Origin: Acidimicrobiia bacterium
GTDB taxonomy: Bacteria; Actinomycetota; Acidimicrobiia; Acidimicrobiales; JANYDT01
Direction of reading: 5' to 3'
Assembly: GCA_025359845.1 (NCBI GenBank)
Contig: JANYDT010000076.1
Location: 307 to 64,306 of the forward strand
Length of the DNA: 64,000 nucleotides
Positions 21,268 through 39,398 of this stretch are shown one piece after another. The notes beneath the pieces are model-generated. The model was given only the letters and a program-made list of their open reading frames with translations, did not search any database and was not told the DNA's origin. Position 1 is the first letter of the stretch. Each line of letters starts with the position of its first letter. The translations under genes were made by a program, and so were the position numbers.

Positions 21268-21503
21268 GCGCGGCCCCCGGTCCCCCTGGGGCGTTGGCCA
21301 GGTGACCATTTTGAACATCAGGGTGCCCCCGCATCGACTACTGGTGCCCTGCGGCCCGTGATCACGTTGCGCTCCGGGCATGGCGGCCGCAATTGAGTGC
21401 ACATCGACAACCGTTGCCCTGCGACGCCGTGCCATCGCCTCAGACTACGGCCTCCATACAGACCGACACGCCCGGCCCTCTCGGCCCGCGTACGCTCGGA
21501 GCT

Positions 21504-22236: not shown

Positions 22237-24903
22237 TCAGCTAACGGCGAGTAGGGACAGCGCAGTGACGGTTCGCAGCGCGGCCGCCTTGCGTTGCTCC
22301 GAATCGCTAGAACCGCCCACCACGGCCCGATTGGCGAACCACTCGCTTTCGACCCAGTTCGCCCTTCGCCCTATAGCTTCCATGGCCAAGGCACCGAACG
22401 GTGAATTGCTCACCCCCGCACGCCCATAGTCACCTCGCAACAGGGCGTCGATTTCAGGGTCAGCGCGCCACGCCAGCACCGCTAACAGATCACTGCCGCG
22501 CTGGAGCGGATCACCACCCGACATTGCCAGTGCGTCGAGGGCCAACCGGCGAAGAACCGCCCGATCCGTCTTCGGACCCACCCGCAAGAGGTCGAAGAGT
22601 CGGAGGCACCATTCGTGGACCCGAATCGAGGCCGGCCGGGCGACTTCTTCGAGCGCAGATTCGAACTCGGCCTGACGGTCGAGCGCGGCCAGGGCCGCCA
22701 GCTTCTGCAATTGCGCTTCGCCTCGGTAGGGAGAGCCAGCACGCGCCACCGTTTGCACGAACGTTGCATCGATCAAGGCTTCCGCCCAACGGCGGTCGTG
22801 CAGCAGCACCAAGGAGCGACAGTGATGGACCGCCGGGAGATGTTCGTCGCCCGACGGCGTCGACGGCACAAGGGCGATGGCTCGATCGATCAGGGCGAGC
22901 GCCGCACCCTCGCCATCGAACAATGTGTTCATAGCCGCGAACACGTACGCGTTGGGGAGCGCGTCAAGGGGCTGATCGGCCGCTCGTTCGAAGGTCTCCG
23001 CCGTGAACGCCCGAGCCTGCTCTCGATCACCGACCGCCATTGCGAGAAAGGCGCAGCCGTTGAGGGCCCACAAATGATCGGACAATCCCAGCTGATCGCG
23101 GCCGGCCAACCACGCCAGTCCCTCGGTGGCCGCTCCGTGCTGAGCGATGGCGACCGCTCGGCCTATGGTCAGGCGGGTCGCAGCCATCGGCCGGTCGCTC
23201 GCAAGCGCCCAGTTCGCCGCCGCCCGAACATTGGCAAAGTCTCGGATCTGCACCCGGGCGTTGACGTCGCCCACCCGAAGCTCTTGGGGGGCTGCCTCGA
23301 TTTCCAGATAGTGCTCGAGATGACGATCGCGCACCGTTCTCGCATCGCCGCTGGCCTGCAACCGGTCGAGCGCAAAGGAGCGCAGCGATTCCGACAACCT
23401 ATATCGGGTAGATTCCGACGGTGATATACGACCCCATTCCGGTTTGCGAATCGTATCGACCAGTGACTTTGCGGCAAAAGAATCGATCAACTCAATAGCT
23501 TCATATTCATCGATCTCAGCCACGGCGACGACATTGCGTAGCGCAAAGCCTTCGGAAAACACGGCCAATCGCTGTAACGTCGACTGCTCTTGCGGTAGGA
23601 GAAGATCGTAGCTCCACGATATGACGTTCTCGAGCGTTTGCTGGCGACGGGTCACGTCTCGGCGACGACTCGTGAGCAAACGGAATCGATCATCGAGTCC
23701 GTCTCGAATATCGGCGAGCGACAGGGTGCGCACTCTCGACGCGGCCAGTTCGATGGCCAACGGAATGCCATCGATCCTTCGACAGATGTCGAGCAGGATC
23801 GGCTCCGTGGCGGGGCCGAAAACAAACGAGGAGTCACACTCCCGGGCCCTTTCCTCGAAGAGCGGCACGGCCGCCTCCAACAGCGGCAACGACGGCACCC
23901 GCCAAATCCGTTCACCGGCGATCGACAGCGCCTCACGACTCGTCGCCAATACCCGCAAGTGCTCGCATCGGTTGAGCAACTCGTGGAGCACGTGGGCAAT
24001 CGAGTCGAGCACCTGCTCGCAGTTGTCGACGACCAACAGCATCGACCGGCCGGCCAACACCGCGACGAGATGTTGAAGCATGCGGTCGGCCTGGTCGGAC
24101 GGCAGCCCGAATGCCGTCGATAGGGTGGGCGAGACGTCGGCGTCGGCGGGCACGGCCGAGAGATCGAGAAAGAAGACCGAACCGCCACCGTCGGTCAGCT
24201 CTCGCGACGCGATCTCGAGCGCCAAGCTCGTCTTGCCGACTCCCCCGGCACCCGTGAGCGTGACCAGTCGGTGCCGGGTCAGCAGCGTACGGACTTCGCG
24301 CGCATCTTCGTCGCGTCCGATCAGGAACGGGCGGTGCGACGGCAGCTGCGACCCGCCCTGACTCTCGGTGCGCAGCGGGGGATGAACGGCAGTGACACCG
24401 GCCACATCGACCTGCAGAAGGCGTACCGGAAGCTCGAACCCACGCAGTCGATGCTCGCCGAGATCTTCGACGAGTTGCCCGCGAAGGTGTTGGGATAGCG
24501 TTTCGGTGATCACGATCTGGCCCCCGTGAGCCGCCTCTTCGACCCGCGCCGCCAGATTGACGACCGATCCGAAGTAGTTCCCTTCGCGTTCGTGGGCGAC
24601 GCCGACGTGCAGGCCCATGCGCACTCGAACTTCGAGGCCCGTAGGCCATTCGGTCCGGGCGAGCGCCTGTTGGATGGCGATGGCCGCGCCCACGGCATCG
24701 GCGGGCTGTTGGAAGGCGGCCGCGAACGAGTCGCCGGCGGTGGCAAACACGTGACCTGACCGCTCGGCCAGAATGGCCCGCAGCACGGAGTCGTGGCGTT
24801 CAAGGGCCAGGCGCATGTCGTTAGGACGTTGCGCCCAGAGCTGGGTGGAGCCCTCTATGTCGGTGAATAGAAACGTGACCACCCCGGTCGGAAGTCGCGT
24901 CAT
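22237..24903 (-). CDS. Class III adenylate/guanylate cyclase fused to STAND (NB-ARC-like) ATPase and TPR-like C-terminus
   Basis: From ATG 24903 the protein reads MTRLPTGVVTFLFTDIEGSTQLW...ATAGDSFAAAF...RVRMGLHVG...YFGSVVNLAARV (cyclase). Then come LTGAGGVGKTSLALEIA (Walker A), LLVVDNCEQV (Walker B) and a long helical repeat region. I could not see a C-terminal LuxR HTH. Confidence 0.85.
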   Translation of the reverse strand: MTRLPTGVVTFLFTDIEGSTQLWAQRPNDMRLALERHDSVLRAILAERSGHVFATAGDSFAAAFQQPADAVGAAIAIQQALARTEWPTGLEVRVRMGLHVGVAHEREGNYFGSVVNLAARVEEAAHGGQIVITETLSQHLRGQLVEDLGEHRLRGFELPVRLLQVDVAGVTAVHPPLRTESQGGSQLPSHRPFLIGRDEDAREVRTLLTRHRLVTLTGAGGVGKTSLALEIASRELTDGGGSVFFLDLSAVPADADVSPTLSTAFGLPSDQADRMLQHLVAVLAGRSMLLVVDNCEQVLDSIAHVLHELLNRCEHLRVLATSREALSIAGERIWRVPSLPLLEAAVPLFEERARECDSSFVFGPATEPILLDICRRIDGIPLAIELAASRVRTLSLADIRDGLDDRFRLLTSRRRDVTRRQQTLENVISWSYDLLLPQEQSTLQRLAVFSEGFALRNVVAVAEIDEYEAIELIDSFAAKSLVDTIRKPEWGRISPSESTRYRLSESLRSFALDRLQASGDARTVRDRHLEHYLEIEAAPQELRVGDVNARVQIRDFANVRAAANWALASDRPMAATRLTIGRAVAIAQHGAATEGLAWLAGRDQLGLSDHLWALNGCAFLAMAVGDREQARAFTAETFERAADQPLDALPNAYVFAAMNTLFDGEGAALALIDRAIALVPSTPSGDEHLPAVHHCRSLVLLHDRRWAEALIDATFVQTVARAGSPYRGEAQLQKLAALAALDRQAEFESALEEVARPASIRVHEWCLRLFDLLRVGPKTDRAVLRRLALDALAMSGGDPLQRGSDLLAVLAWRADPEIDALLRGDYGRAGVSNSPFGALAMEAIGRRANWVESEWFANRAVVGGSSDSEQRKAAALRTVTALSLLAVS

Positions 24904-24963
24904 CCGCGCATAGTAGGGGCACGAGGACGCGCGTGGGATATCGTCCCGAGCAATGGACAGAAG

Positions 24964-26757
24964 ATGGAAACCATACGGGTGATCAGCTCCTTTGAGGCGG
25001 TAGTGGTGGGGTCGGGGTTTGGTGGTGCCGTGGTGGCATGTCGCAGCGCGCAGCGCTGGCCCGGTGCGGTGCTGGTATTGGAGCGCGGCAAGCGCTACCC
25101 GGCCGGCTCGTTCGCCCGAACCCCCGACGAGATGAGCAGCAACTTCTGGAACGCCGACGGCGATCGTAAGGGCAGGAAGAACTACCGTCACGGCGACCAG
25201 CGCGGCCTGTTCGATGTGAGGCATTTCCGTCGCATGGATGCCGTCCTGGCCGCCGGGCTGGGGGGCGGGTCGCTCATTTATGCCAACGTGATCCTCGAGC
25301 CACCAGAGGCTGTCTTCAATGATCGGCGCTGGCCCATGTCATGCACGGAAACGGCCATGCGGCCCTACTACGAGGTGGTGCGCAAGGTGCTTGGGGCCCG
25401 CCCGCTGCCCGACGCATCAAACGCGGAACGACGCGTGCCGAGGGCCGAGATCTTCGCCGATGCGGCCGTGAAGATGGGCCGCCAATCACGACCCCTGGAT
25501 CTCGCCGTGTACTTCGGAGACGACCCTTCGGCACCAATCGTGCCGGGGCGCACCGTTACCAATGCCCACGGCGCGGAACAGACATCGTGCACCTACTGCG
25601 GAGAGTGTGATCTTGGGTGCAACACTCACGCGAAGAACACCCTCGACCTCAACTATCTTTTTGTCGCCGAACACGACCATCGGGCCGCCATCGAGACGCA
25701 AAGTCTGGTCGAAAAGATCGTCCCCCTCGATGCTGATGGTCACGACGACCCGACCGCCGACGGAACCAACGGCTACCGGGTTCAGTACCGAAACCTCGAC
25801 CAGACAGTGTCGACGTCGGTCGTCGCCAAGCGCGTAATCGTCGCGGCTGGCGCGCTCGGATCGACGGAGCTGCTGCTGAGGTGCCGAGACATCCACAAGA
25901 CACTCCCCTCCCTCAGCCCCCGTCTCGGCACCGGGTTCTCGGGCAACGGAGACTTCTTGACGTTCGTCACCGGGGTCGAGAAGGAGACCCGGCCGAGTTA
26001 CGGGCCGGTCATCACCCAGGCCATCGATTTCAACCTGTTCGACAAACACGACCCCGACCGGGCGTTCATCTTGGAAGACGCCGGATACCCCAACGAATTG
26101 GCCTGGTTCGTCGAGGGGGCTAAGCCGGCGGTATTCAAGATCGGGGCCATCCTGCGGGCGGCTCGCCATGCTCTCAAACGGACCGCCCGAGGCCGGGCGG
26201 GGGGACGGATGGGTTACGCCTTGCGCGACGCCCTGGGCGGTGACGTGACCAGCAACTCGGCCGTCCTGCTGTGCATGGGCCTCGACTCGGCGACCGGCGA
26301 TCTCACCCTCGACCGTAACGGATGGGTCACCGTGCGGTGGCCGCAGCGGGCCAACCTGGCCCTCTACAAGGCCATCGCGCGAGCCGGCAAGGAATTCGGG
26401 ACAGCCGTCAGTGCCGCCCTCGTGGCGACGACCCCGACCTGGTGGCTTCCTATCCGTCGCAACGTTACCGTCCACGCCTTGGGCGGCTGCCCGCTGGGCG
26501 CGACCCGAGCCAGCGGGGTCGTGAGTTCCGACCCGAACCATTTCGGCGAGGCGTTCGGCTATCACAACCTTTTCGTGGCCGATGGGGCCATCGTACCGGT
26601 CTCACTGGGCTCGAATCCGTCACTCACGATTGCCGCGCTGGCCGAAATGGTGGCCGAGGGGATTACCGGTCAAATCCCGACTTGTGATTTACGTCATGGG
26701 TCGGCGAGTGATGTAGATCACAGTGCGATCCGCGTTCGCCCTATAGGAATGACGTGA
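24964..26757 (+). CDS. GMC-family FAD oxidoreductase (cholesterol-oxidase-like)
   Basis: The N-terminal FAD fold is FEAVVVGSGFGGAVVACRSA. The C-terminal part is HALGGCPLG...NLFVADGAIVPVSLGSNPSLTIAALAE, typical of GMC enzymes. Confidence 0.8.
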   Translation: METIRVISSFEAVVVGSGFGGAVVACRSAQRWPGAVLVLERGKRYPAGSFARTPDEMSSNFWNADGDRKGRKNYRHGDQRGLFDVRHFRRMDAVLAAGLGGGSLIYANVILEPPEAVFNDRRWPMSCTETAMRPYYEVVRKVLGARPLPDASNAERRVPRAEIFADAAVKMGRQSRPLDLAVYFGDDPSAPIVPGRTVTNAHGAEQTSCTYCGECDLGCNTHAKNTLDLNYLFVAEHDHRAAIETQSLVEKIVPLDADGHDDPTADGTNGYRVQYRNLDQTVSTSVVAKRVIVAAGALGSTELLLRCRDIHKTLPSLSPRLGTGFSGNGDFLTFVTGVEKETRPSYGPVITQAIDFNLFDKHDPDRAFILEDAGYPNELAWFVEGAKPAVFKIGAILRAARHALKRTARGRAGGRMGYALRDALGGDVTSNSAVLLCMGLDSATGDLTLDRNGWVTVRWPQRANLALYKAIARAGKEFGTAVSAALVATTPTWWLPIRRNVTVHALGGCPLGATRASGVVSSDPNHFGEAFGYHNLFVADGAIVPVSLGSNPSLTIAALAEMVAEGITGQIPTCDLRHGSASDVDHSAIRVRPIGMT

Positions 26758-28535: not shown

Positions 28536-31500
28536 ATGAGACTGGGGCGCCGTATCGACGCGGTCGACGTCTCGATCGGCATTCCGCCGCTCGCTATCTC
28601 GGGCTCCTTCCGCCCGTCGAAGGCCGAGCAACTTGGGGCGTGGGAGTTGCTGGTGGAGCTGACGTCTCGTACCGCAGTAGCGCCGCTGGCTCCTGATGTC
28701 GGACTCTTGCGAGAAGCGCTTTCGAGTCATTATGCGCTCTTCCAGATCACCCGGGACATCTTGCGCAAGCACGGGCCGGAAGTGGCCGATTCCCGCCATG
28801 ACGGCAACCTGTCGCTCGGCGTCATGGCCATGCGCGTGCTCAACGAAGTGCTGCGCCCGACTCTGTCTCGTTGGCACCCGGCATTGGCTGACTACGAAAA
28901 CGGCCGCCCGCAAGGGGTGAGCCAACTTGAGTGGGAGCGAAGATGGGCTCGGGACAAGGAGTGCCGGACCGCGCTCAACGACGTTCGGGCCGCGGTGCGC
29001 AGTTACATCGACGCGCTCGGTCGTATCGCCGGCGCTCCTGATCTCGCCGACGCCGCCGTTGCGGTGCCCCCCTCGCGGCCGGCGCCTCTGGAGCGGCGGG
29101 CCGGCGAGTCGTCGGAATCAAAGCCCGAGCCAATTGGTGCGGAACCACAATGGCCGCGGCCCGACGGGTCGCCGAAGAAGCGGATGGTCGCATGGTTCGA
29201 CCTGGTTGAAGGCCTCCGCACGATGAAAGCCATCCGAATCGGCAAACGCGACGACAAGGCAAGGGCCGACTCGACGGCCCCCGAACGACTCGTCACCCTC
29301 GATCTGTCGGCCACGACCGGCGACGTGTGGGTCGATTATGTGGCTGATCTCGGCGACGCATTCGATGCGACGATGGCCGTGGCCTGGTTCCTCACCCGCA
29401 AGCACCTGCACGTTCCCAGCGACGAGAACGCCGAGTTCCCGGCCGTCCCGAGCGGTGGCCTCCCCCGGGGCGAGCTGCTCATCATGGGCGGCGACGAGGT
29501 GTACCCGTACGCGTCGCGCGACAGGTACGAGCAACAGACCGTCCTGCCCTACGTTTGCGCCCGAGACGACGCAACGGTCGGAAGGGTTCTGGCCCTCCCG
29601 GGCAACCACGACTACTACGGCGGGATCAATCATTTCGAGGAGCGCTTCGTGGGCGACGGCGCCGAGGTCGCAGGAACCGGCCTCGGATCCGGCCCCGGAT
29701 CTTGGGCCTCGGCCGGACAGGACCGGCGCTGGTTCTCGACCAAACTCCCGCACGGATGGTGGATCTGGGGGCTCGACACCGGCCTCGACGGATCCATCGA
29801 CAAGGGCCAGCGTGAGCACTTCCGCCATCTCGTGGCGAGCGACCAGTTCGGCCACGGCGACCGGGTCGTGCTGTGCACTCCGGTCCCGCTCTGGCAGCTG
29901 CGCCAGAAGCACGAGGGCCAGTACCAAGACCTCCGACAACACATCGACGGATGGCTCGAGCCGAAGCTGGGCACGGTCGCCCTGTTCGTGGCCGGCGACT
30001 CCCATTACTTCGCGCAATACGACGACACGAGCCGCGACGAACACCACCTCACCGTGGGCGGCGGCGGCGCCTTCCTCCATCCGACCCATTCGCTGGCCGA
30101 ACGCGTGCCGTCGGAGCGGGGCCGGCCCGAGTTCCGGCTCAACGCAAGGTGGCCGTCTCCGGTCGACAGCCGGGCCCTCGCGCCGCGCTTCACCATGCTG
30201 CGGAACCGCCAATTCCTGGCCCTGGGATTGATCTTCGCGGGGGTCTTCGGACTCGGCGCGTGGCTGGTGTCGACACGCTGGCTGCGGCTGCCGTGGGGAG
30301 CGGAGGCCGCCCGGCCCTGGCCCCTCGGCGCGCTTTCTTACGTGGCCCGGGTCGGTGCCCTGTGGCCGGTTCTATTGGTGCTGGCCGTTGCCGGTGCTTT
30401 TCTCACGACGCCGAACGCCCGCGAACACATGCTCCGCCAAGGGGCCCACCGCTACGGACTGGCATTCGGAGGCGCATTGGGCTCCGTGCTGTTCGTTGCC
30501 CTCGTCCATGCCTTCTGGCTCATCGACACGGTGATCCAGCCTTCGTGGGGGCGATTCTGGTGGTTCGGCGGGGCGTCGCTACTCGCCGGCGTCATCCTGC
30601 TCGCCACGTTCCTCCGCGGCGTTGGGTGGCTGTGCGTCCATCTCCGGGTCAACGACAACCTCGCCTTCTCTGCGGTGGCGTCGCCCCGTTTCAAACACTT
30701 CGTCCGATTTCGCTTCGACTGCGATGGGCGGCTCACCGTGTACATCGTCGGCATCGATCCGATCGGACGGGGCTGGTGGGACGCGATGGGCAAAAACCGC
30801 GTACTGCCCCCATCGGACCCCGCCGGAGTGGCCCACCTTCATTACGTGTGGGGCACGACGATTCCGGTGCGCACTGCGCCCGGCGATCCTGGCGCGGCTC
30901 TTCGCTTGGTCGCCATCTCGGTCTCGACGACCGGCGACGACGAACCCCCGGCCTCGCCGGCCCTGGAGATAGTCGTTCGCGTTGTGATAGGTGGCCTGCT
31001 GGCCGACGACATCAGTGTCGCTTACGGCGGATGGCCGGGCCCGAACGGAACAACCGAGACGGACTTCAGGTCAGTGCTCGCCGATGCGGCGACGGTCGCG
31101 ACGGCCTGCGGGACGGGCCCAAATGGACCGGACGGGACGGGTGCGGACGGCTCGGGTGCGCACGGGCCTGGTGCAGACGGGCCCGGCCCCACCAGGCCGA
31201 CAGCGGGCGTCGTGAGCTATCTCGCCGCACCCCTCTGGTCGAGAAAGGGCCCCTCCATGAGCCCCGACGGGTCGGAGATCCGCTGCGACGCCCTTCCGAG
31301 CGGTTGCAAGGTGCTGCCGCACCCGCTCGACGCGCGGGCCCTGGCCTTCACGTCGATGCGCGAGCGGATGGCGGCGGACTGCACCGCCCGCGTGATCGTC
31401 GGAGGCCGCCTCAACGACTACGCCGGGCGGTATCCCGGCGTGATCGAGGAGGCCATCACGACGATCGCGGCCGGTGGCGCCTTGTACATCGTGGGCGGGT

Positions 31501-31811
31501 TCGGAGGGGCGGCGGCGGCACTGGCCCGCCACGTCCGAGGCGAGACGGTTCCCGAACTTAGCAACATATGGCAGCGGGCCCACACCCCCGCCGTCGCCGC
31601 CCGCGGCACCCGTCTGGCCGACACGACCTACCGGATCGACCTCGAGGCCGACCTCACCGCGGCCCTTCCCCGGGGCCACTGGTCGAGCCTGCGCAACGGG
31701 CTCAGCGTCGAGCAGAACGAGCGGCTGGCGGTCGCCGCCGATCCGTCCGAAATCGTCGCGCTCATCCGCCGCGGGATCGACCAACTCTTCACCCGACGAC
31801 CTCAGCGATGA
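28536..31811 (+). CDS. Multidomain membrane protein: helical N-domain, calcineurin-type metallophosphoesterase, 4 TM helices, C-terminal SLOG/LOG-like Rossmannoid domain
   Basis: The MPE motifs are DYVADLGD, GGDEVY, LPGNHDY, VAGDSHY and GGGGAFLHP. The hydrophobic helices are FLALGLIFAGVFGLGAWLV, ALWPVLLVLAVAGAFL, GLAFGGALGSVLFVALVHAFWLI and FGGASLLAGVILLATFL. The C-terminal part reads VAISVSTTG..VVRVVIGGLLADDISVAYGGWPG...ARVIVGGRLNDYAGRYPGVIEEAITTIAAGGALYIVGGFGGAAAALA. The gene starts 3 nt after the hydrolase stop. The MPE and TM calls are firm. The SLOG-like call is motif-level only. Confidence 0.7.
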   Translation: MRLGRRIDAVDVSIGIPPLAISGSFRPSKAEQLGAWELLVELTSRTAVAPLAPDVGLLREALSSHYALFQITRDILRKHGPEVADSRHDGNLSLGVMAMRVLNEVLRPTLSRWHPALADYENGRPQGVSQLEWERRWARDKECRTALNDVRAAVRSYIDALGRIAGAPDLADAAVAVPPSRPAPLERRAGESSESKPEPIGAEPQWPRPDGSPKKRMVAWFDLVEGLRTMKAIRIGKRDDKARADSTAPERLVTLDLSATTGDVWVDYVADLGDAFDATMAVAWFLTRKHLHVPSDENAEFPAVPSGGLPRGELLIMGGDEVYPYASRDRYEQQTVLPYVCARDDATVGRVLALPGNHDYYGGINHFEERFVGDGAEVAGTGLGSGPGSWASAGQDRRWFSTKLPHGWWIWGLDTGLDGSIDKGQREHFRHLVASDQFGHGDRVVLCTPVPLWQLRQKHEGQYQDLRQHIDGWLEPKLGTVALFVAGDSHYFAQYDDTSRDEHHLTVGGGGAFLHPTHSLAERVPSERGRPEFRLNARWPSPVDSRALAPRFTMLRNRQFLALGLIFAGVFGLGAWLVSTRWLRLPWGAEAARPWPLGALSYVARVGALWPVLLVLAVAGAFLTTPNAREHMLRQGAHRYGLAFGGALGSVLFVALVHAFWLIDTVIQPSWGRFWWFGGASLLAGVILLATFLRGVGWLCVHLRVNDNLAFSAVASPRFKHFVRFRFDCDGRLTVYIVGIDPIGRGWWDAMGKNRVLPPSDPAGVAHLHYVWGTTIPVRTAPGDPGAALRLVAISVSTTGDDEPPASPALEIVVRVVIGGLLADDISVAYGGWPGPNGTTETDFRSVLADAATVATACGTGPNGPDGTGADGSGAHGPGADGPGPTRPTAGVVSYLAAPLWSRKGPSMSPDGSEIRCDALPSGCKVLPHPLDARALAFTSMRERMAADCTARVIVGGRLNDYAGRYPGVIEEAITTIAAGGALYIVGGFGGAAAALARHVRGETVPELSNIWQRAHTPAVAARGTRLADTTYRIDLEADLTAALPRGHWSSLRNGLSVEQNERLAVAADPSEIVALIRRGIDQLFTRRPQR

Positions 31812-33397
31812 CGAAAATCTTCATGAGCTACCGGCGCGCCGACAGTGCTTCGGCGACCACGTCGGTTCGGCTCCTGCTCGAGCGGTACTACCGCGACGAC
31901 GACATCTTCCAGGACTACGAGTCGATTCCTCCGGGCGACGAGTTCTGGCCGTGCATCGAAGGCCACATCAAGGCAGCCAACGTGCAGTTGGTCATGATCG
32001 GACCACGGTGGCTCACGGAGATGCATGCGAGCGGCGGCCGGCGCATCGACCACCCCGACGACTGGGTGGCGCGCGAAGTGGCGCTGGGCCTCGAAACCAA
32101 GACCGTGCGGGTGATCCCTGTGTTCGTCGACGGCGCCAACCCCGACACAGTCCTGAAAGCTGATCCCTTACCGGCCCGCATCCAATCGCTCATGAGCAAG
32201 AACGGTCGGACGCTGCGCGGTGACAGCCTCGAAGGCGACGTGAAGGAGCTCGTCGGTTGGATCGGCCGGAAGCGCTACGACCCCCGTGACAACCCTCGGA
32301 TCTACGCCGGGATCGGCGCGGCGGTGCTGGCGCTGGGGATCGCGATCGCGATCCCGGCGACGAGATCCTCGGGATCAGACACCGTCATCAGTCAGCCCAC
32401 AACCGCGGCACGCGCGCCCCTGCAGGTTCATCTCGCAGGCCCGACCGGATTGTTCGAGGACCGCGTCACCAGAGATCTGTATATAACCGATACGAAGGGG
32501 AACTGGGTCTACAAGCGTTCGCCCGACGGATCGACAGTTGCCGTGGCCGGTCGGGGCGAGTCGAAAATTCAGGCCTTCAGCGAGTCCGGCGTCGCCACCG
32601 ATCTATACCTCTATCGCCCCGCCGGCATCGTCAGCGCCAGCGACGGGGTGCTCTGGTTCGCGGACCACGGCATCATCCGTTTCCTTTCCAACGGCCGAAT
32701 CGCCACCGGTGCGGGCATCTACGGCCAGTCAATCTACGACGGGGACGGCGAAGCCGTCCAACGGTCGATCAACCCCAACATGTTGGCCATCGGCCCCGAC
32801 GACAGCATCTACTTCTCCGACACCGACAACCATCTCGTCCGAGTCCTCCAAGGCGGCCGTTTCCGGACCCTGGCCGGAGTAAGAGTCGACGAAAAACCCG
32901 TCGGTGGCTTCAATGGCGAAGACGGAGTCGGCACGGCTATCAAGTTGAACAGACCGTACGGAGTCGCGATTGACGCTCACGACAACCTTTACATCGCCGA
33001 CACCGAAAACAATCGAGTCCGCAAACTCTCCCTGACAACCCACCAAATTACAACCGTCGCAGGCGGCGGCACGTCATCAGCCGACGGCCCCGCCCTCCAA
33101 GTCGCGCTCGACAACCCAACCGGGGTCACTGTCGCCCCCGATGGGTCCGTTTACATCTCCGAATACGCAGGAAACCGAGTTCGTAAACTGAGCGTCGATG
33201 GTCTCTTGACGACGGTGGCCGGGAAAGACAGCGCAACGTGCAAAAGCGGGGATCGACCCGTCTCGTCTTGCACGCTCCAAGGCCCCAACACCGTGCTGGC
33301 CGCGGCCGACGGGAGCGGCATCTACATCAGCGAATACGTCGGCCACAAAGTACGCAAACTGGACCTGGACGGCAAGCTCACACTCGTTCAAGGCTGA
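31808..33397 (+). CDS. TIR domain - single TM - NHL-repeat beta-propeller protein (receptor-like)
   Basis: From the ATG overlapping the upstream stop (ATGA, 31808-31811) the protein reads MTKIFMSYRRADS...DDWVAREVALGL, a TIR_2-type signature with Glu at 32075-32077. A TM helix IYAGIGAAVLALGIAIAIPA follows the basic stretch GRKRYDPRDNPR. Repeated NHL-like blades follow (LYIADTENNRVRKL, VYISEYAGNRVRKL, IYISEYVGHKVRKL, IYFSDTDNHLVRVL). Confidence 0.8.
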   Translation: MTKIFMSYRRADSASATTSVRLLLERYYRDDDIFQDYESIPPGDEFWPCIEGHIKAANVQLVMIGPRWLTEMHASGGRRIDHPDDWVAREVALGLETKTVRVIPVFVDGANPDTVLKADPLPARIQSLMSKNGRTLRGDSLEGDVKELVGWIGRKRYDPRDNPRIYAGIGAAVLALGIAIAIPATRSSGSDTVISQPTTAARAPLQVHLAGPTGLFEDRVTRDLYITDTKGNWVYKRSPDGSTVAVAGRGESKIQAFSESGVATDLYLYRPAGIVSASDGVLWFADHGIIRFLSNGRIATGAGIYGQSIYDGDGEAVQRSINPNMLAIGPDDSIYFSDTDNHLVRVLQGGRFRTLAGVRVDEKPVGGFNGEDGVGTAIKLNRPYGVAIDAHDNLYIADTENNRVRKLSLTTHQITTVAGGGTSSADGPALQVALDNPTGVTVAPDGSVYISEYAGNRVRKLSVDGLLTTVAGKDSATCKSGDRPVSSCTLQGPNTVLAAADGSGIYISEYVGHKVRKLDLDGKLTLVQG

Positions 33398-33441
33398 GCC
33401 CAAGCCCTTCCCGCCGACTCGGCGCCAGCGCGGCCTCTGCG

Positions 33442-33657
33442 TCAGCTGTCGTAGCGGAAGCCGAGCTTGAGCGTCACTTGGAACTGGCGGACTTCTGACA
33501 TCGGTCCGATCGCCCCCCGGATGTCGGTCACCTCGAACCAGTCGAGATTGCGCAGCGACTCGCTGGCCCGCCTGATGCCGTTCTTGATGGCGTCGTCCAG
33601 TCCGACGTCGGAGGTCCCCACCAAGTGCGTGATGGCAAATGTCGAGTTGTCGGGCAT
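33442..33657 (-). CDS. Dodecin family flavin-binding protein
   Basis: The 71-aa product is ...FAITHLVGTSDVGLDDAIKNGIRRASESLRNLDWFEVTDIRGAI...VRQFQVTLKLGFRYD. It matches the dodecin pattern (VGTS...A...RNLDWFEV...FQVTLKVGF) that I recall. Confidence 0.8.
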   Translation of the reverse strand: MPDNSTFAITHLVGTSDVGLDDAIKNGIRRASESLRNLDWFEVTDIRGAIGPMSEVRQFQVTLKLGFRYDS

Positions 33658-33921
33658 AGCGCTCCTTTTTGATGTGTCGCATTGGCGTAGCCAAGCGAAC
33701 GAGATACTAGCGACCTCAGCATTGCGCCGCTCGGCTGGCGCTCCTGGTCATTGGGGCGAGTGTTCGCAGCGGCTCGCGACACCACGCGACTTCGACCGCG
33801 ACGCGCCAGGACTCTGCGACTTGCCCTGACGTCTCGGCTGGCCGAAAGGCGTAGTGTGGCGGTGTGCCCATCGCTGTTGCCTCGTTCGGGAACGTAGTGG
33901 TGGAAAATCGCGAAGTGCGTG

Positions 33922-34290
33922 ATGCTTGAAGTCGGGTTTGATGCCGCGAATCTGTTGGAAGTGCTGGAGGGGGCGAGTTTTCAAGATATAGATGAGTTGG
34001 CGTTTGGGTTAGTCGTAATGGATCGTGCTGGTGACGTTGTCTTTTATAATGCTGACGAAGCTGCCCGAGCCGGCCTTTCGGCGGATCGGGTGATTGGGCG
34101 CAACTTTTTCGAGTCGGTTGGTCCCTGCACAAACAATTATTTGGTGGCGCAGCGCTTCTTGGATGAGCCGGACCTCGATGAGTTTGTGGATTTCGTTTTC
34201 ACGTTACGTATGGCGCCGACGCCGGTGCGGTTGAGGATGATGGCAAGCGCCGGCTCTCCACGCCAGTACTTGGCCGTACTGGATCGATGA
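33922..34290 (+). CDS. pyp: Photoactive yellow protein (PYP)-like PAS domain protein
   Basis: The 122-aa product from ATG 33922 (a GTG at 33919 is also in frame) is alignable over its full length with my recollection of Halorhodospira PYP: AFGLVVMDRAGDVVFYNADEAARAGLSADRVIGRNFFESVGPCTNN...FTLRMAPTPVRLRM versus [46 protein letters not shown]...FDYQMTPTKVKVHM. The chromophore Cys (tgc 34126-34128), the Tyr in FYN and the Glu in ADE are all present. Confidence 0.8.
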   Translation: MLEVGFDAANLLEVLEGASFQDIDELAFGLVVMDRAGDVVFYNADEAARAGLSADRVIGRNFFESVGPCTNNYLVAQRFLDEPDLDEFVDFVFTLRMAPTPVRLRMMASAGSPRQYLAVLDR

Positions 34291-37136
34291 CCAAGGAGCG
34301 GCCCCAAGGCGTCTCGGCGGAGCTGGAAGGTCTGCTCCAGTTTCTCTACGTTTGCCCGGTCGGGCTCGTCGAGTTCGATGACGCAGGAACCATTCACCGA
34401 ATCAATCCCGAAGCCGTGAATCTACTGATAGCCGCGGTTGGCGTAACGCCGTTCGGCAATATATTCGACGTGCTGGGCGCCAGCGGGGCTGAGCTACGCG
34501 AACTTCTGACGGCCGCCCCTCTTGACGCCGGGAGGATCGTGAACGAATATCTGGTGCGCCCGGAGCCAGCGGGGCTGAGGGCGTTGTCGCTCAATGTGGT
34601 GCGAGTGAGCAGCGACCGCGTGATGGCGATGATCACTGACGTCTCCGCGATGCAGTTGCGTTCATCGTTGGCGGAGGCGCTGGCATCGGCTTCTGGAGCA
34701 AACGATGCTGCAGCTCGTGTCTGTGCCCTGACCAATGTCTTGCTGGGCGCGGGAGGGGCAGCGGTGTATGAGCGGTCCGATGGCGGCGGTTGGTTGTGCT
34801 TGGGCCAGTCCGATGAGCTTGTCGGAGGCGGGGCAGAGGCGTCGGATGGGAGTGGCGGTCCGAGCCATGAAGCGTTTCAAAGGGGGGCGATCGTTACGGT
34901 CCGAACGCGGGCCGAGGTAGTGGGCCGCTATTCGAAATGGGCCGCGCACCACGCGGAGGCGTGTGCTACAGTGGCCGTTCCCATGTTTGGGTCGCAGTCG
35001 TCTGAGGGTCCGATGACCGGACACGTTCTTGAGTTGTGGTTCCGCGACGATCCGGGTTTTGACCGCCAGTATTTTAATAATCTCGAGTTGATGGCAAGTG
35101 ACATTTCGAGGTTCTTCGAACGGGCTCGGTCGAGTGAACTGCTGCGGGAGAGCGAGCAGTTCACTCGCAGGGTCCTCGACAATTTGGCCACCTTCGTTGG
35201 GGTCGTGACGACTGACGGAGTCCTTACCCACGTGAATCAGGCTCCGTTGACGGCCGCTGCTATTACGGCAGATGATGTGCTGGGCCGCAAGTTTTGGGAT
35301 TGCCCTTGGTGGAACTATGCGCCCGACGTGCAGGCGAAACTCGAGCGGGCTGTACATCGGGCGGCGGGCGGTGAAATCGTGCGATACGACGCAACAATCC
35401 GTGTAGCCGGCGACAAACGATTGGTAGTCGATTTTCAGATCGCGCCGCTGCTCGACGATAGAGGTGTGGTTACGCATTTGATTCCGTCCGGGTTCGACCT
35501 CACCGAACGGACCGCCGCCGAGTCCGAACGAGATCAGGTTCATCAGCGACTGAGCCAACTTCAACGCTTGGGCGCCTTACTTTCGGCCGCCGCGTTTCCG
35601 GCCGATGTCTGCGCCGCCGCGGCCGTGGTCGTCAAGGAAGCCTTTGCTGCGGATCGTTGTGCGGTCGGATTCGAGTCCGGTGATCAATTGAAATTGTTCA
35701 CGCTGCCGGGCGCTGATGAACAGCGAGGGTCATGGACAACCATTCCGCTCCCGATTCAGGTCGCCATGGATGGCTGCACCTTGGCGACCCCCGCCGCGGG
35801 CATCGACCGCGCGACGGTGAACGCTCTCTGGGGTGTCGTGGTCGAAGGTATGGCTTCCTCGATATTCGTACCGTTAGGCGGTGATGGAACTCTCGCCGTG
35901 ATGCACGCTTCGTCAAGTACCTTGCGCGAGTCGGAGCGCGATCTGCTCGACGCGATGAGCCACCTCGTCTCCTCGGCGTTGGAACGAGCCAGGCTGCACG
36001 AAGCCGCCGAGGTTGACCGGGCCGAGGATACGCGGGCGCTGGCCCGGGCCGAATTTTTGGCCGACGCAATGGCCCGGATCGCAATGGTTGACGGAGTTGC
36101 GGCCCGGTTGCAAATGCTCGTCGATCTATTGGTTCCGAGCATGGCGGATTACGCCACCATCGAAGCGCCCGATCAAGCGAACCCTGTGCTGGCGTTGGCC
36201 CATCGAGATCGCACACTCATCGGCCGGTCGGCCCAACTTGGTGCTCATTCGCACATCACGGTACCCCTCGACCTCGGTGGCGGCATGAAAGGGGCGCTGC
36301 TCCTTGAGCTGAGCGACGTCGACCGTCGACCGTTTGACGCACACGATCTGGCCTTGGCGCGCCACGTCGGTGATCGTGCTGGGATTTTGTTGGCGAGGGC
36401 GCGCCTCTACGAGGAGGAGCACAACATCTCGCTGCGTCTCCAGCGGGCTCTGCTCCCGGACCAGCTGGTGCGTCATCGCGACGTAGTTCTTACGGCCCGC
36501 CACGAGGCCGCCGGTCCAATGCTCGAAGTAGGCGGCGACTGGTACGACTCGTTCACATGGCCCGGGGGCCTTGTCGGTCTGGTCGTCGGTGACGTCGCGG
36601 GGCATGGCATCGAGGCCACCGCCGCGATGGGGCGGCTGCGTTCAGCGGTCGCTGCGTTTGCGCCCCTCATCGGCCCTGACCCCGCCGCGCTGCTGGATGC
36701 ACTCGACCTGTTCATGCGAGGCCCCAACGGCACCCGCTACGCGACGGCGTGCTGTGCGGTGTTCGATCCGAGTTCCGGTGAACTGCGCTACTCCTCCGCC
36801 GGTCACCTTCCCATGCTGGTGCTTTCACCCAACGGGCGGACAAGTTGGCTCGATGACGCCCAGGCCCCTCCACTGTGCCAGTTGCCGATCGATCATCGGC
36901 CATCAGGTTCGGTCGTCCTAGAACGTGGCGCGTTGCTCGTTCAGTACTCCGACGGTCTGGTTGAACGACGAGGAGAAGCCCTTGACGTCGGCCTTTCACG
37001 GCTCGAAGAAGCGATCAGGCGACTGACTTCGGTCGGCCTCGACGACATCGCCAATCGCCTCGTCGACCACTTCGTGGCCTCTCATCCCATCGAGGACGAC
37101 ATTGTCGTACTGGCGATGCGCTACGACCCAACGTAG
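34287..37136 (+). CDS. PAS/GAF multi-sensor PP2C (SpoIIE-type) serine phosphatase
   Basis: The start overlaps the PYP stop (ATGA, 34287-34290). PAS-like segments include VLDNLATFVGVVTTDGVLTHVNQAP...GRKFWDCPWW. GAF-like regions follow. The C-terminal part is RLQRALLPD...GGDWYD...VVGDVAGHGIEATAAMGRLRS...YSSAGHLP...DDIVVLAMR. Confidence 0.85.
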   Translation: MTKERPQGVSAELEGLLQFLYVCPVGLVEFDDAGTIHRINPEAVNLLIAAVGVTPFGNIFDVLGASGAELRELLTAAPLDAGRIVNEYLVRPEPAGLRALSLNVVRVSSDRVMAMITDVSAMQLRSSLAEALASASGANDAAARVCALTNVLLGAGGAAVYERSDGGGWLCLGQSDELVGGGAEASDGSGGPSHEAFQRGAIVTVRTRAEVVGRYSKWAAHHAEACATVAVPMFGSQSSEGPMTGHVLELWFRDDPGFDRQYFNNLELMASDISRFFERARSSELLRESEQFTRRVLDNLATFVGVVTTDGVLTHVNQAPLTAAAITADDVLGRKFWDCPWWNYAPDVQAKLERAVHRAAGGEIVRYDATIRVAGDKRLVVDFQIAPLLDDRGVVTHLIPSGFDLTERTAAESERDQVHQRLSQLQRLGALLSAAAFPADVCAAAAVVVKEAFAADRCAVGFESGDQLKLFTLPGADEQRGSWTTIPLPIQVAMDGCTLATPAAGIDRATVNALWGVVVEGMASSIFVPLGGDGTLAVMHASSSTLRESERDLLDAMSHLVSSALERARLHEAAEVDRAEDTRALARAEFLADAMARIAMVDGVAARLQMLVDLLVPSMADYATIEAPDQANPVLALAHRDRTLIGRSAQLGAHSHITVPLDLGGGMKGALLLELSDVDRRPFDAHDLALARHVGDRAGILLARARLYEEEHNISLRLQRALLPDQLVRHRDVVLTARHEAAGPMLEVGGDWYDSFTWPGGLVGLVVGDVAGHGIEATAAMGRLRSAVAAFAPLIGPDPAALLDALDLFMRGPNGTRYATACCAVFDPSSGELRYSSAGHLPMLVLSPNGRTSWLDDAQAPPLCQLPIDHRPSGSVVLERGALLVQYSDGLVERRGEALDVGLSRLEEAIRRLTSVGLDDIANRLVDHFVASHPIEDDIVVLAMRYDPT

Positions 37137-37280
37137 CCTGCACGCCGGCAACCACGCCCCAATCGTCGCCACCGTTTGCCTGTCGTCGCAGCGGTGCAGG
37201 ACAGCAACGAAGTCCGACTCATGCCGGGTGTGTCAAGGGCCACGGCGGGGTGGCTCAATGGGCGCCCCACCTACCTGCGT

Positions 37281-37306
37281 GTAGCACAAACCAACAAAAG
37301 TGCTAC
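37281..37306. promoter_or_regulatory. Perfect 7-bp inverted repeat (candidate antitoxin operator)
   Basis: GTAGCAC (37281-37287), a 12-nt spacer, then GTGCTAC (37300-37306). The repeat ends 10 nt upstream of the Phd/YefM-type antitoxin ATG (37316). Confidence 0.4.
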
Positions 37307-37315
37307 GCCCAAGGA

Positions 37316-37573
37316 ATGGATGTCGGGGTACGCGAGCTTCGCAACCATACGGCCGATGTGATCGCTGCGGTCGAGGCTGGTGAAATTGTGTATTTGACGT
37401 CGCATCGCCGGCGTATCGCGGTAATCACTCCTGTGAATGGGGTCGAGGGCGATCTGTTGCGTGCGTTGATGGAGCGGATCGATCGCACCCCGGCGTTCGA
37501 CAGCGGACTGGCGGAGGCGGTGGAGGCGAGCCGGGCGCTCTATCAGACGCAGGAGCGTGAGCCGTGGTCGTGA
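37316..37573 (+). CDS. Phd/YefM-family type II antitoxin
   Basis: MDVGVRELRNHTADVIAAVEAGEIVYLTSHRRRIAVITPV is the typical Phd/YefM N-terminus. The TGA overlaps the toxin ATG (TGATG at 37571-37575). Confidence 0.8.
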   Translation: MDVGVRELRNHTADVIAAVEAGEIVYLTSHRRRIAVITPVNGVEGDLLRALMERIDRTPAFDSGLAEAVEASRALYQTQEREPWS

Positions 37574-37986
37574 TGCTCGACACCTCCGCAGTCATTGCGT
37601 TGGTGGAGCGCAAACACGCCGGCGTGCGTTCGGCTGTCGTCGAAAGTGGATCGGTCCCATCGATCTCGGTGATCACATTGGGGGAGTTGCATCACGGGGT
37701 TGAATCGGCGCCCGATGGAGGGCGTCGGCGGCTACGACAGTTGACGGTGGATGCATGTGAGCTGATGACGGTTAAGCCGGTGAGCGATGAGGTCGCGCGC
37801 CGTTACGGTCAACTCTCAGCCGACGTTTCGCGCCGCATCCGCGCCGCGGATCGGTGGATAGCGGCGACGGCGGCGATTGAGGGCAGCCTGCTGGTGACCT
37901 TCGACGGTCATCTGGCCGCGGAGCTTGGGCGTGTGCAGGCCGAGCAAGAACCGAGACCGGTTCGCGTGATGTTGCTCGAAGGCTGA
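37573..37986 (+). CDS. vapC: PIN-domain toxin (VapC family)
   Basis: MLDTSAVIAL...ITLGELHHGV...DRWIAATAAIEGSLLVTFD carries the conserved PIN acidic positions (D, E, D, D). Confidence 0.8.
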   Translation: MLDTSAVIALVERKHAGVRSAVVESGSVPSISVITLGELHHGVESAPDGGRRRLRQLTVDACELMTVKPVSDEVARRYGQLSADVSRRIRAADRWIAATAAIEGSLLVTFDGHLAAELGRVQAEQEPRPVRVMLLEG

Positions 37987-38017: not shown

Positions 38018-38578
38018 TCAGGGCCCGAACGCCACGAGCCCCTCGAACAGTTCGCCGACGGGAAGCGAAATCGGCGGGCAGGTGAGGGCAATCGTATCGA
38101 TCGGACCGACGACTTCGAGCTGCCAGCCCCTATCGGTACGCCAGTGGTGTTCGATGCGAGGCTGGTCCTGATGCACCACGAGATAGTGCCGCAACGACTC
38201 AATGGCGAAGTAGGCGCCCCGCTTCTCGCGCTGGTCGATGTCGCGAGTCGACGGAGACAGCACCTCGGCCAAGAGGCACGGCGAGGTCTCGAAGTAGGGG
38301 TCGGCCTGCTCCTCGCAGGCGACCATCACGTCGGGATAGTAGCCCGCGTTCTCGGTCATGAGGCGCATGTCGGACGCATAGGTCCGGCACCCGTGTCGTT
38401 TGGCGACAGGGTGCAGGTGAGCGACGATCTCCATGGCAATACGGTTGTGCACGCCGCTCGTACCGGTCATTGCGAACAACACTCCACCGATCCATTCGTG
38501 ACGAATGGTCGAGTCGCGCTCGCAGCAGAGGTATTCGGTCTTGGAGATCAACTGGCGGGCGGTGTCGCTCACAGCCAC
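38018..38578 (-). CDS. Uma2 (DUF820) family endonuclease
   Basis: EYLCCERDSTIRHEWIGGVLFAMTGTSGVHNRIAMEI...YYPDVMVAC...LAEVLSPSTRDIDQREKRGAYFAIESLRHYLVV is the restriction-endonuclease-like PD-(D/E)xK pattern of Uma2. Confidence 0.75.
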   Translation of the reverse strand: MAVSDTARQLISKTEYLCCERDSTIRHEWIGGVLFAMTGTSGVHNRIAMEIVAHLHPVAKRHGCRTYASDMRLMTENAGYYPDVMVACEEQADPYFETSPCLLAEVLSPSTRDIDQREKRGAYFAIESLRHYLVVHQDQPRIEHHWRTDRGWQLEVVGPIDTIALTCPPISLPVGELFEGLVAFGP

Positions 38579-38678: not shown

Positions 38679-39398
38679 ATGACGACGATCGTCGAAGACC
38701 TGGTGTATCCGGAGGAGGCGCACAGCGTGACCGGCACCGACGACCACCTCAGCTGGATCATCTTGTTGCGGGGCAACCTCCGCGCCGTTTTCCACGGGCA
38801 GAACGTCTACATCGGCGGCGACATCTTCTGGTATCCCGTCGAAGGAGAGCCCCGGATCTGCGCCTCGCCCGACGCTCTGGCCGTGTTCGGGCGCCCGCAG
38901 TACAACCGCCGCACTTGGCAGAACTGGCACGAGGAAGGTCTCGGCCCCCAAGTAACAGTCGAAGTCTTGTCGGTGGTCAACAAGACCGCCGCGGGGCGGC
39001 GGGAACTGGCCAACAAGGTCGAGTTGTACCAGCGCCACGGCGTGGAGGAGTACATCGAACTCGATCCCGATCGTCCGTCTATCGTCGTGTGGTTACGAGG
39101 TCCGTCCGGACTGGTCCGCACTGCGCCGCTAACAAGATGGGTGAGCCCCCGGCTCAACGTCACTTTTGCTGTTGAACCCGACGGACTTAACGTTTACGGC
39201 CCTGACGGCGCTCGGTTCGTGGCCCAGGAAGACGCTTTGCGTCAAGGCCGGATCGACGCGGCGCGAGCCCAACAAGAAGCGGCGCGAGCCCAACAAGAAG
39301 CGGACCGAGCGAACCGGGAAGCGAAGCGCGCGACCGAGGCCGAGGCCGAGGTAGTCCGGCTTCGAGCCGAAATCGACGCACTTCGAAAGGGTGAATGA
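38679..39398 (+). CDS. Uma2 (DUF820) family endonuclease with C-terminal coiled-coil tail
   Basis: HLSWIILLRGNL...YIGGDIFWYPVEG...SPDALAVFG...VTVEVLSVVNKTAAGRRELANKVELYQRHGVEEYIELDP is the Uma2 core. The tail is AARAQQEAARAQQEADRANREAKRATEAEAEVVRLRAEIDALRKGE. Confidence 0.75.
   Translation: MTTIVEDLVYPEEAHSVTGTDDHLSWIILLRGNLRAVFHGQNVYIGGDIFWYPVEGEPRICASPDALAVFGRPQYNRRTWQNWHEEGLGPQVTVEVLSVVNKTAAGRRELANKVELYQRHGVEEYIELDPDRPSIVVWLRGPSGLVRTAPLTRWVSPRLNVTFAVEPDGLNVYGPDGARFVAQEDALRQGRIDAARAQQEAARAQQEADRANREAKRATEAEAEVVRLRAEIDALRKGE
39258..39320 (+). repeat. 21-bp in-frame tandem repeat (2 perfect + 1 degenerate copy)
   Basis: gcggcgcgagcccaacaagaa occurs twice and is followed by gcggaccgagcgaaccgggaa. 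They encode the AARAQQE repeats in the Uma2 tail. Confidence 0.8.

Follow-up and report, generated by a model that had tools for sequence, protein, structure and literature searches.

A clade-C photoactive yellow protein encoded next to a PP2C phosphatase, and its proposed docking on a conserved PAS-like domain

We analyzed a 64,000-nucleotide stretch of contig JANYDT010000076.1 from an Acidimicrobiia bacterium (hereafter, the window). It contains a gene for a homologue of photoactive yellow protein (PYP), followed by a gene for a multidomain protein that ends in a SpoIIE/PP2C-type serine phosphatase domain. By sequence, the homologue is a new member of the published PYP clade C. The phosphatase begins with a divergent PAS-like domain, here called the PYP-associated domain, whose relatives accompany clade-C-type PYPs in many phyla irrespective of the output to which they are joined. 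These observations make it moderately probable that the two products form a two-part blue-light module, in which the PYP docks on the N-terminal domain of its neighbor and thereby controls a partner-switching phosphatase.

The PYP homologue and its clade

An earlier note on this sequence had read the 122-aa open reading frame (ORF) starting at the ATG at 33922 as a PYP homologue, and phmmer searches, the NCBIfam model TIGR02373 and structure prediction all bore this out. In a phmmer search against all sequences of the Protein Data Bank (PDB), only PYPs reached significant E-values. The best match was the PYP domain of Ppr (1mzu; E, 4.7e-17), and the PYP of Halorhodospira halophila was matched with an E-value of ~5e-13, residues 4-111 being aligned with a single 3-residue deletion. 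TIGR02373 scored 74 bits (E, 1.1e-20), and Pfam returned only a borderline generic PAS match. The AlphaFold model, built on 38 relatives, has a predicted local distance difference test score (pLDDT) of 92.7. According to Foldseek, it superposes on PYP crystal structures with template modeling (TM) scores of 0.85-0.87 over 122-125 columns, N-terminal cap included, whereas non-PYP PAS domains reach ~0.6-0.66. The sequence similarity is far beyond chance and identifies a genuine PYP-family member, whose PYP fold is supported by the predicted structure.

The residues that the earlier note had placed at positions 69, 42 and 46 (Cys, Tyr and Glu) and at positions 50 and 52 (Ala and Leu) are found there. 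The numbering of Tyr42, Glu46 and Cys69 and the N-terminal cap match those of the H. halophila protein (2phy, 1nwz; TM score, 0.87). The two proteins are ~28-31% identical and differ by Thr50 to Ala, Arg52 to Leu, Tyr98 to Leu and Trp119 to Leu exchanges in the window PYP, the 3-residue deletion of which lies in the 80s loop.

In a large protein collection, 375 clusters related to the window PYP were found at an E-value of ≤0.001, the best 120 of these 375 being mostly 60-74% identical to it. The relatives are mostly metagenomic, the few taxon labels being Acidimicrobiales, Ilumatobacter and Solirubrobacteraceae, and many carry the JGI annotation "photoactive yellow protein." In an alignment of 196 PYPs (the window sequence and those of 119 clusters and 76 genome loci), Cys69 and Glu46 are present without exception, and position 42 is Tyr in 189 sequences, Phe in 6 and Ile in the remaining one. 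The equivalents of Phe62, Phe63 and Phe96 (window Phe93) are kept along with this triad, as is that of H. halophila Met100 (window Met97; Met in 191/196). The earlier note had held that loss of the Cys/Tyr/Glu triad among orthologues would count against the identification; as the triad is conserved across the alignment, that objection falls away.

The PYP family has been defined by similarity together with Cys69 and divided into clades A, B and C, with members in ten phyla and in fewer than five actinobacterial genomes (Xing, Gumerov & Zhulin 2022, J Bacteriol 204:e00300-22, PMC9664959). Clade C, whose genes often adjoin GGDEF genes, includes proteins of Geodermatophilus poikilotrophus (WP_091439124) and Nocardioides rubriscoriae (WP_170286145) with Tyr, Glu and Cys intact (supplementary table, PMC9664959). 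The window PYP is 57% identical to the PYP of a Geodermatophilus locus (L033) and 51% identical to that of a Nocardioides locus (L028), and it has the clade-C traits of a retained Met100, Val for Phe92 and Leu for Trp119. Given these relatives and traits, the window PYP itself is ordinary for clade C, with which it shares Tyr42/Glu46/Cys69, a single domain of ~120-130 aa and the frequency of GGDEF neighbors. Thus, the identification in the earlier note holds, while the note missed that such proteins, actinobacterial ones included, belong to an already published clade. What differs from the published account is the abundance in Actinomycetota, where we found dozens of metagenome-assembled genomes (MAGs) with PYP in addition to the 375 protein clusters, and the presence of PP2C outputs and of a shared N-terminal effector domain, neither of which is discussed in that paper. 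A further difference is that Phe96 is retained in the window PYP, as Phe93. PYP, thought to be rare in Actinomycetota, is in fact common in their uncultured lineages.

A PAS-like domain paired with PYP

The ATGA overlap between pyp and the gene for a 949-aa PAS/GAF/SpoIIE-type phosphatase was as the earlier note had described it, and the Pfam domains of the product agree (Table 1). What the note overlooked is the conserved domain at the N terminus of this protein, which we regard as the most informative feature of the locus. By sequence, its initial ~120 residues make up a divergent PAS-like domain that has no Pfam family of its own: no family reaches the threshold for the window copy, and generic PAS models alone are matched, below threshold, in 16 of 37 members. 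The signature LLQFLYxCPVGL...G.V...NP.A..LL.P...L.NLF contains invariant Tyr21 and Pro24 residues. An AlphaFold model of the domain (pLDDT, 83.7) has a five-stranded PAS core flanked by a helix at either end, and the structures nearest to it are PAS domains of histidine kinases. The idea that the domain is a second PYP was rejected, as the hhalign probability against the PYP family was 16% and equivalents of Cys69, Tyr42 and Glu46 are missing. An exhaustive HMMER pass through 1.84 billion representative proteins detected 353 clusters with the domain, and in nearly all of the best 150 of these 353 it occupies residues ~5-125 of proteins 88-1233 aa long. A profile search of a 5.8-billion-protein collection with a 37-sequence domain alignment returned 13 matches, mostly fragments, and is unusable as a census.

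Scanning 185,579 species genomes with a profile of the family, we confirmed 139 PYP loci and kept the best 80. Their actinobacterial hosts include Acidimicrobiales, Streptosporangiaceae, Solirubrobacteraceae, Geodermatophilus, Nocardioides, Actinomycetospora and others. The remaining hosts are Spirochaetaceae, Alpha- and Betaproteobacteria, Myxococcota, Acidobacteriota, Planctomycetales and Bacteroidia. Using the 949-aa partner as a tblastn query against these 80 loci, we observed that in nearly all of them the gene next to pyp on its downstream side starts with a homologue of residues 1-122, and that the PP2C region is common to the Actinomycetota loci only. Such a domain-first gene lies downstream of pyp on the same strand, often with a 4-bp overlap, in 75 of the 80 loci, representing at least seven phyla; one more locus has a convergent copy, and in another the contig ends before the testable position.

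The outputs that follow the domain are diverse. SpoIIE/PP2C (24 loci, all from Actinomycetota, two with a fused RsbW-type HATPase_c_2 domain) and GGDEF (24 loci, one with EAL) are joined by histidine kinases (14 loci, one hybrid) and MarR-type helix-turn-helix domains (2 loci); another 6 loci have GAF-only, unclassified or truncated partners. In the remaining 5 loci (L028, L030, L032, L047 and L065), the partner is ~202-216 aa long and consists of the PYP-associated domain and a conserved C-terminal tail of ~85 aa without a Pfam match, a class found mainly in Nocardioidaceae-type loci. Pairings with kinases and with cyclic di-GMP (c-di-GMP) enzymes recall Ppr and Ppd, in which PYP is the input to a histidine kinase or to a GGDEF-EAL output. 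However, the PYP of Ppr and Ppd is fused covalently to a bacteriophytochrome effector, whereas the window PYP is a separate protein and its effector carries a dedicated partner domain.

The association also holds in the reverse direction. When metagenome contigs were searched with the domain motif LLQF[LMF]Y[VQM]CP alone, taken from a 9-sequence subset, 10 loci were found. pyp lies directly upstream in all nine that could be tested, and the tenth contig ends 60 bp before the match. The domain also exists as a stand-alone 141-aa protein (e.g., WP_166856608 of Telluria/Massilia), whose gene is placed between pyp and a gene for a GGDEF-EAL protein and overlaps each by 4 bp; the 129-aa PYP of this arrangement has Tyr, Glu and Cys intact and is 42% identical to that of the window. 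An Oxalobacteraceae-type operon of this kind, with genes for PYP, the 141-aa domain protein and GGDEF-EAL, is found at L100:3206-7213 and also in L101 and L102. As judged from gene content, PYP and the domain co-occur both ways irrespective of output, and the domain occurs essentially only beside a clade-C-type PYP.

It is an even call whether the ~120-residue domain is a dedicated receiver of clade-C PYPs in general. It would then belong to a portable two-polypeptide cassette with at least five predicted outputs, namely PP2C partner switching, c-di-GMP synthesis or turnover, histidine kinases, MarR-type regulators and a free adaptor, and might be PBP-like. PBP (RCAP_rcc01067, 142 aa) is the product of the gene adjacent to that of the Rhodobacter capsulatus PYP (Rc-PYP), with which it forms a complex that depends on light (bioRxiv 10.1101/2021.06.01.446672). 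Rc-PYP and PBP are the closest experimental precedent, a stand-alone PYP and a binder encoded by its neighbor, as proposed for the window pair. PBP is close in length to the 141-aa stand-alone form of the PYP-associated domain, and its predicted N-terminal helices followed by beta-strands correspond to the layout of the modeled domain. The systems differ in that Rc-PYP belongs to clade A and the window PYP to clade C, and in that PBP has no attached output domain. By analogy with what has already been suggested for Rc-PYP/PBP, the PYP-domain pair could be used in optogenetics as a compact switch that puts protein-protein contacts under the control of light.

Three candidate PYP::domain fusions (P0178, P0198 and P0199) were considered as Rosetta-stone evidence and dropped, since they come from fragmentary contigs and look like artifacts of frameshift or read-through. 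P0178 is plainly pyp with a frameshift; in P0198 and P0199, an ORF runs from the C-terminal half of PYP into the domain, through either natural fusion or frameshift/read-through.

The phosphatase, the proposed light module and its alternatives

The window partner is a predicted SpoIIE/RsbU-type PP2C serine phosphatase. Its metal-binding motifs GGDWYD, GDVAGHG, YSDGL and EDDIVV are intact and align with those of Mycobacterium tuberculosis Rv1364c, the closest solved structure to this domain (3ke6; E, 1.7e-23). Rv1364c, a PAS-PP2C-kinase-STAS protein, has neither a PYP partner nor the PYP-associated domain, whereas the window protein has no kinase and STAS modules. The combination of PP2C with HATPase_c_2 seen in Rv1364c is also present in two close relatives of the window locus, L003 and L010. 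A scan of positions 33300-37700 for promoters and terminators found no terminator, and all promoter-like sites are within genes.

The earlier note had suggested that light might feed into a Ser-phosphatase partner-switching pathway. The association of PYP with PP2C is conserved across Actinomycetota, and components of partner switching appear in the closest relatives of the window PYP (L001, L003 and L010; 68-71% identity). In all three, pyp is immediately preceded by a STAS gene. The phosphatases of L003 and L010 continue beyond the PP2C domain into an RsbW-type HATPase_c_2 kinase, L001 being truncated. L010 (equivalent to L097:7663-15638) thus comprises STAS, PYP and a domain-PAS-GAF-PP2C-RsbW kinase protein, with a second light-related gene, for a DNA photolyase, 3 kb downstream. 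In a Solirubrobacteraceae locus, a gene for an extracytoplasmic function (ECF)-type sigma factor adjoins. In Bacillus subtilis, blue light reaches the sigma-B pathway through YtvA, a LOV-STAS protein, and RsbU and RsbP are the PP2C phosphatases of this pathway. Sigma-B regulation likewise connects blue light to a switch between a STAS antagonist and an anti-sigma kinase, as proposed here through PP2C. However, the B. subtilis photoreceptor is a flavin-binding LOV domain fused to STAS in the stressosome, whereas here a separate p-coumarate PYP would dock on the phosphatase.

We propose the following mechanism. The clade-C PYP is predicted to carry a p-coumaroyl-type chromophore bound to Cys69 as a thioester, with the phenolate held by Tyr42 and Glu46, and would bind the N-terminal domain of its partner as a PAS-PAS heterocomplex. 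Light-driven isomerization and partial unfolding of the PYP would alter its contact with the domain. This change would reach the PP2C domain and alter its activity by way of the helix following the N-terminal domain and of the GAF/PAS/GAF array, where other signals may be integrated. The phosphatase would dephosphorylate a STAS anti-sigma-factor antagonist encoded elsewhere in the genome, and an alternative sigma factor would be switched as a result.

Several observations weigh against this proposal. With respect to the pairing, three of the 80 loci (L014, L066 and L078) have no detectable copy of the domain, and we infer binding from gene order alone. The pairwise distances among PYPs correlate with those among the paired domains (Mantel r, 0.705; 0 of 2000 permutations as high), yet adjacent co-inherited genes would give the same correlation, so that it is no independent proof of contact. 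PYP and phosphatase might be mere neighbors, co-transcribed, with PYP signaling to another protein and the PAS-like domain acting as an independent sensor. The lack of direct evidence for binding, the abundance of PAS domains at the N termini of signaling proteins and the precedent of H. halophila PYP, whose partner is still unknown, are compatible with this scenario. It does not account for the presence of the same specific domain after PYP in so many loci and phyla while the outputs are swapped, for the uniform outcome of the reverse search, for the frequent 4-bp overlaps or for the maintenance of the domain in a small gene of its own, placed between those for PYP and the effector, and we consider it very improbable.

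Other observations concern the chromophore. The score of the window PYP is below the TIGR02373 equivalog cutoff of 143 bits. Thr50 is exchanged for Ala or Ser, with Thr kept in some of the 196 PYPs, and Arg52 for Leu or Ile throughout the clade, position 52 being always hydrophobic and never Arg. Genes for tyrosine ammonia-lyase (TAL) or p-coumarate-CoA ligase (pCL) were found in none of the actinobacterial loci examined. Furthermore, clade-C PYPs are uncharacterized, and neofunctionalized PYPs have been proposed elsewhere in the family (Xing et al. 2022, PMC9664959). A protein with a PYP-like fold might then not be a p-coumarate photoreceptor but sense another ligand, the redox state or some other acyl chromophore by way of Cys69, and still regulate the phosphatase through the N-terminal domain of the latter. 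We regard this as unlikely. The cutoff is a stringent one; TIGR02373 captures only ~20% of PYP homologues (Xing et al. 2022, PMC9664959). The residues of the p-coumaric acid-binding triad are essentially invariant in the alignment, as are the equivalents of Met100, Phe62, Phe63 and Phe96. Mutants of H. halophila PYP of the T50V/R52Q type still bind the chromophore. Structures of the T50V and R52Q variants have been solved (PDB 1f98 and 2d02).

The supply of the chromophore bears on the same issue. As the earlier note had remarked, the 64-kb window has no TAL or pCL gene, as judged from a motif scan, Pfam analysis of 30 ORFs and tblastn with pCL-like and TAL-like queries. Nevertheless, TAL and pCL genes are found near just ~10% and ~30%, respectively, of accepted PYP genes (Xing et al. 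2022, PMC9664959), so that their absence is weak evidence against a photoreceptor role. In addition, short pCL-like AMP-binding genes abut the clade-C operon in L073, L076, L086 and L100-L102, and a TAL-like gene does so in L058. The pCL-like gene of L100-L102 is divergent; it codes for a 413-aa protein with an N-terminal carrier-protein-like GADSLD motif and has a 4HBT thioesterase gene alongside.

As to the target of the phosphatase, a STAS hidden Markov model and tblastn gave no match in the window, in which no STAS, anti-sigma (HATPase_c_2) or sigma gene is present, and a STAS gene lies within 10 kb in only 4 of the 24 PP2C loci. The target of the window phosphatase is therefore deduced from relatives only. 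The suggestion of a partner-switching pathway thus stands as far as the conserved PP2C link and the STAS and kinase genes of the closest relatives go, and finds no counterpart in the window itself. The window phosphatase is consistent with a partner-switching output, the full module being absent from the window.

A full-text literature search found nothing relevant that links PYP with SpoIIE, PP2C or partner switching. The main text of Xing et al. nowhere mentions phosphatases; their supplementary table lists "SpoIIE" among the neighbors of a Geodermatophilus PYP, as well as a set of anti-sigma-antagonist, ATP-binding protein and PAS-SpoIIE genes near the clade-A PYP of Rhodopila (PMC9664959). 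In the searchable literature, the downstream partners of PYP are still called unknown or poorly understood (PMC9664959; bioRxiv 10.1101/2021.06.01.446672), and neither the PP2C output nor, more importantly, the conserved partner domain seems to have been described there. PYP has been a model photoreceptor for decades, and a partner domain that is recognizable by sequence and located on easily assayed enzymes would make its signal transmission testable. If correct, our proposal would provide the first general, sequence-defined account of signal relay by single-domain PYPs and would bring p-coumarate-based light sensing into the sigma-factor partner switching of actinobacteria.

Composition and surroundings of the locus

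The earlier note had drawn attention to the unusual codon usage of pyp and had considered it probably acquired horizontally. The dip is real: pyp has a G+C content at third codon positions (GC3) of 0.59 and the partner gene one of 0.69, compared with 0.70-0.89 for neighboring genes. The inference of transfer is weak, since the G+C content of pyp is below that of the surrounding locus in 73 of 79 related loci (from L001-L080), by 4 points on average and even where GC3 exceeds 0.9. The low values mostly reflect the composition of the PYP protein, which is rich in Phe, Asn, Asp and Tyr. Such a composition effect can mimic a signal of horizontal transfer. In a neighbor-joining tree without support values, with H. 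halophila PYP as the sole clade A/B reference, the window PYP nests with Acidimicrobiales-type sequences in a large actinobacterial PP2C-linked group, so that any recent transfer would have been from another actinobacterium. Recent transfer of pyp is thus weakly supported, and an early gain by Actinomycetota, with later spread inside the phylum, is a better fit than recent import from Proteobacteria.

The locus might still be a recently transferred cassette in a variable island, poorly integrated into host regulation or non-functional. The GC3 contrast is at its largest with neighbors at 0.82-0.89, the flanks contain conflict-type and toxin-antitoxin genes, and the STAS gene and fused kinase have been lost relative to the closest relatives. 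Nonetheless, both ORFs are intact with all functional motifs, the window copy nests within the actinobacterial clade, and the toxin-antitoxin and NTP-transferase neighbors have similar GC3 values, of 0.70-0.73; the depressed G+C of pyp is, as noted, a feature of most related loci. Furthermore, the order of dodecin, PYP, phosphatase, toxin-antitoxin and Uma2 genes is identical in contigs from five independent samples, which also argues that the locus is no assembly chimera. A cassette of this sort, foreign or defunct, seems to us decidedly unlikely.

TABLE 1 Features of the pyp locus and its surroundings, in window coordinates
Feature	Coordinates	Strand	Remarks
pyp gene	33922..34290	+	Clade-C PYP homologue, 122 aa, PAS fold with N-terminal cap; start ATG 33922, stop TGA 34288-34290
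Tyr42 codon (tat)	34045..34047	+	Tyr in 189/196 relatives
Glu46 codon (gaa)	34057..34059	+	196/196 relatives
Cys69 codon (tgc)	34126..34128	+	Predicted chromophore thioester site; 196/196 relatives
ATGA overlap, pyp stop/partner start	34287..34290	+	Putative translational coupling; same 4-bp overlap in many related loci
Partner gene	34287..37136	+	949 aa; N-terminal PYP-associated domain, GAF, PAS, GAF, GAF, PP2C phosphatase
PYP-associated PAS-like domain, aa 1-125	34287..34661	+	Proposed PYP docking/receiver module
GAF_2 domain, aa 141-276	34707..35114	+	Pfam
PAS_4 domain, aa 297-409	35175..35513	+	Pfam
GAF_3 domain, aa 440-567	35604..35987	+	Pfam
Third GAF domain, C-terminal part, aa 647-700	36225..36386	+	Pfam
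SpoIIE/PP2C serine phosphatase domain, aa 760-946	36564..37124	+	Pfam SpoIIE, 143.9 bits
Dodecin gene	33445-33657	-	71 aa; flavin-binding, PF07311; divergent, upstream of pyp
TIR-NHL-repeat protein gene	31808-33397	+	529 aa; marginal PADLOC match to PD-T4-6 (E, 7e-4)
SLOG protein gene	28536-31811	+	1091 aa; C-terminal LD_cluster2; 4-bp overlap with TIR-NHL gene
Adenylate/guanylate cyclase and NB-ARC/STAND NTPase protein gene	22237-25224	-	995 aa; weak PycC-like match (Pycsar cyclase; E, 1e-4)
Phd/YefM-PIN toxin-antitoxin pair	37316-37986	+	Directly after the phosphatase gene
Uma2-family nuclease gene, first	38018-38578	-	
Uma2-family nuclease gene, second	38679-39398	+	
cofD	20323-21267	+	Coenzyme F420 biosynthesis
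cofE	21393-22223	+	Coenzyme F420 biosynthesis
murA	18936-20252		Adjoining cofD/cofE
LCP-family gene	17521-18936		Adjoining cofD/cofE

The dodecin gene was considered as a possible part of the module and rejected, as it adjoins pyp only in contigs of the window's own lineage and in none of the 80 related loci. Beyond it, the SLOG and TIR-NHL genes resemble a conflict or defense gene pair; PADLOC gave no match for the SLOG protein. The first of the Uma2 genes matches the PADLOC candidate PDC-S03 (E, 1e-20). With SLOG, TIR-NHL and cyclase-STAND genes upstream and toxin-antitoxin and Uma2 genes downstream, the flanks of pyp look like a variable island.

MurA of the window matches metagenome proteins at 70-88% identity, whereas its named relatives, at no more than ~55% identity, are both Actinomycetes and Acidobacteria. 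The PYP operons nearest to that of the window come from MAGs labeled Actinomycetes or Acidimicrobiales. In the window, the F420 genes, the LCP gene and genes for cell-wall glycosyltransferases fit an actinobacterial host, probably an uncultured one.

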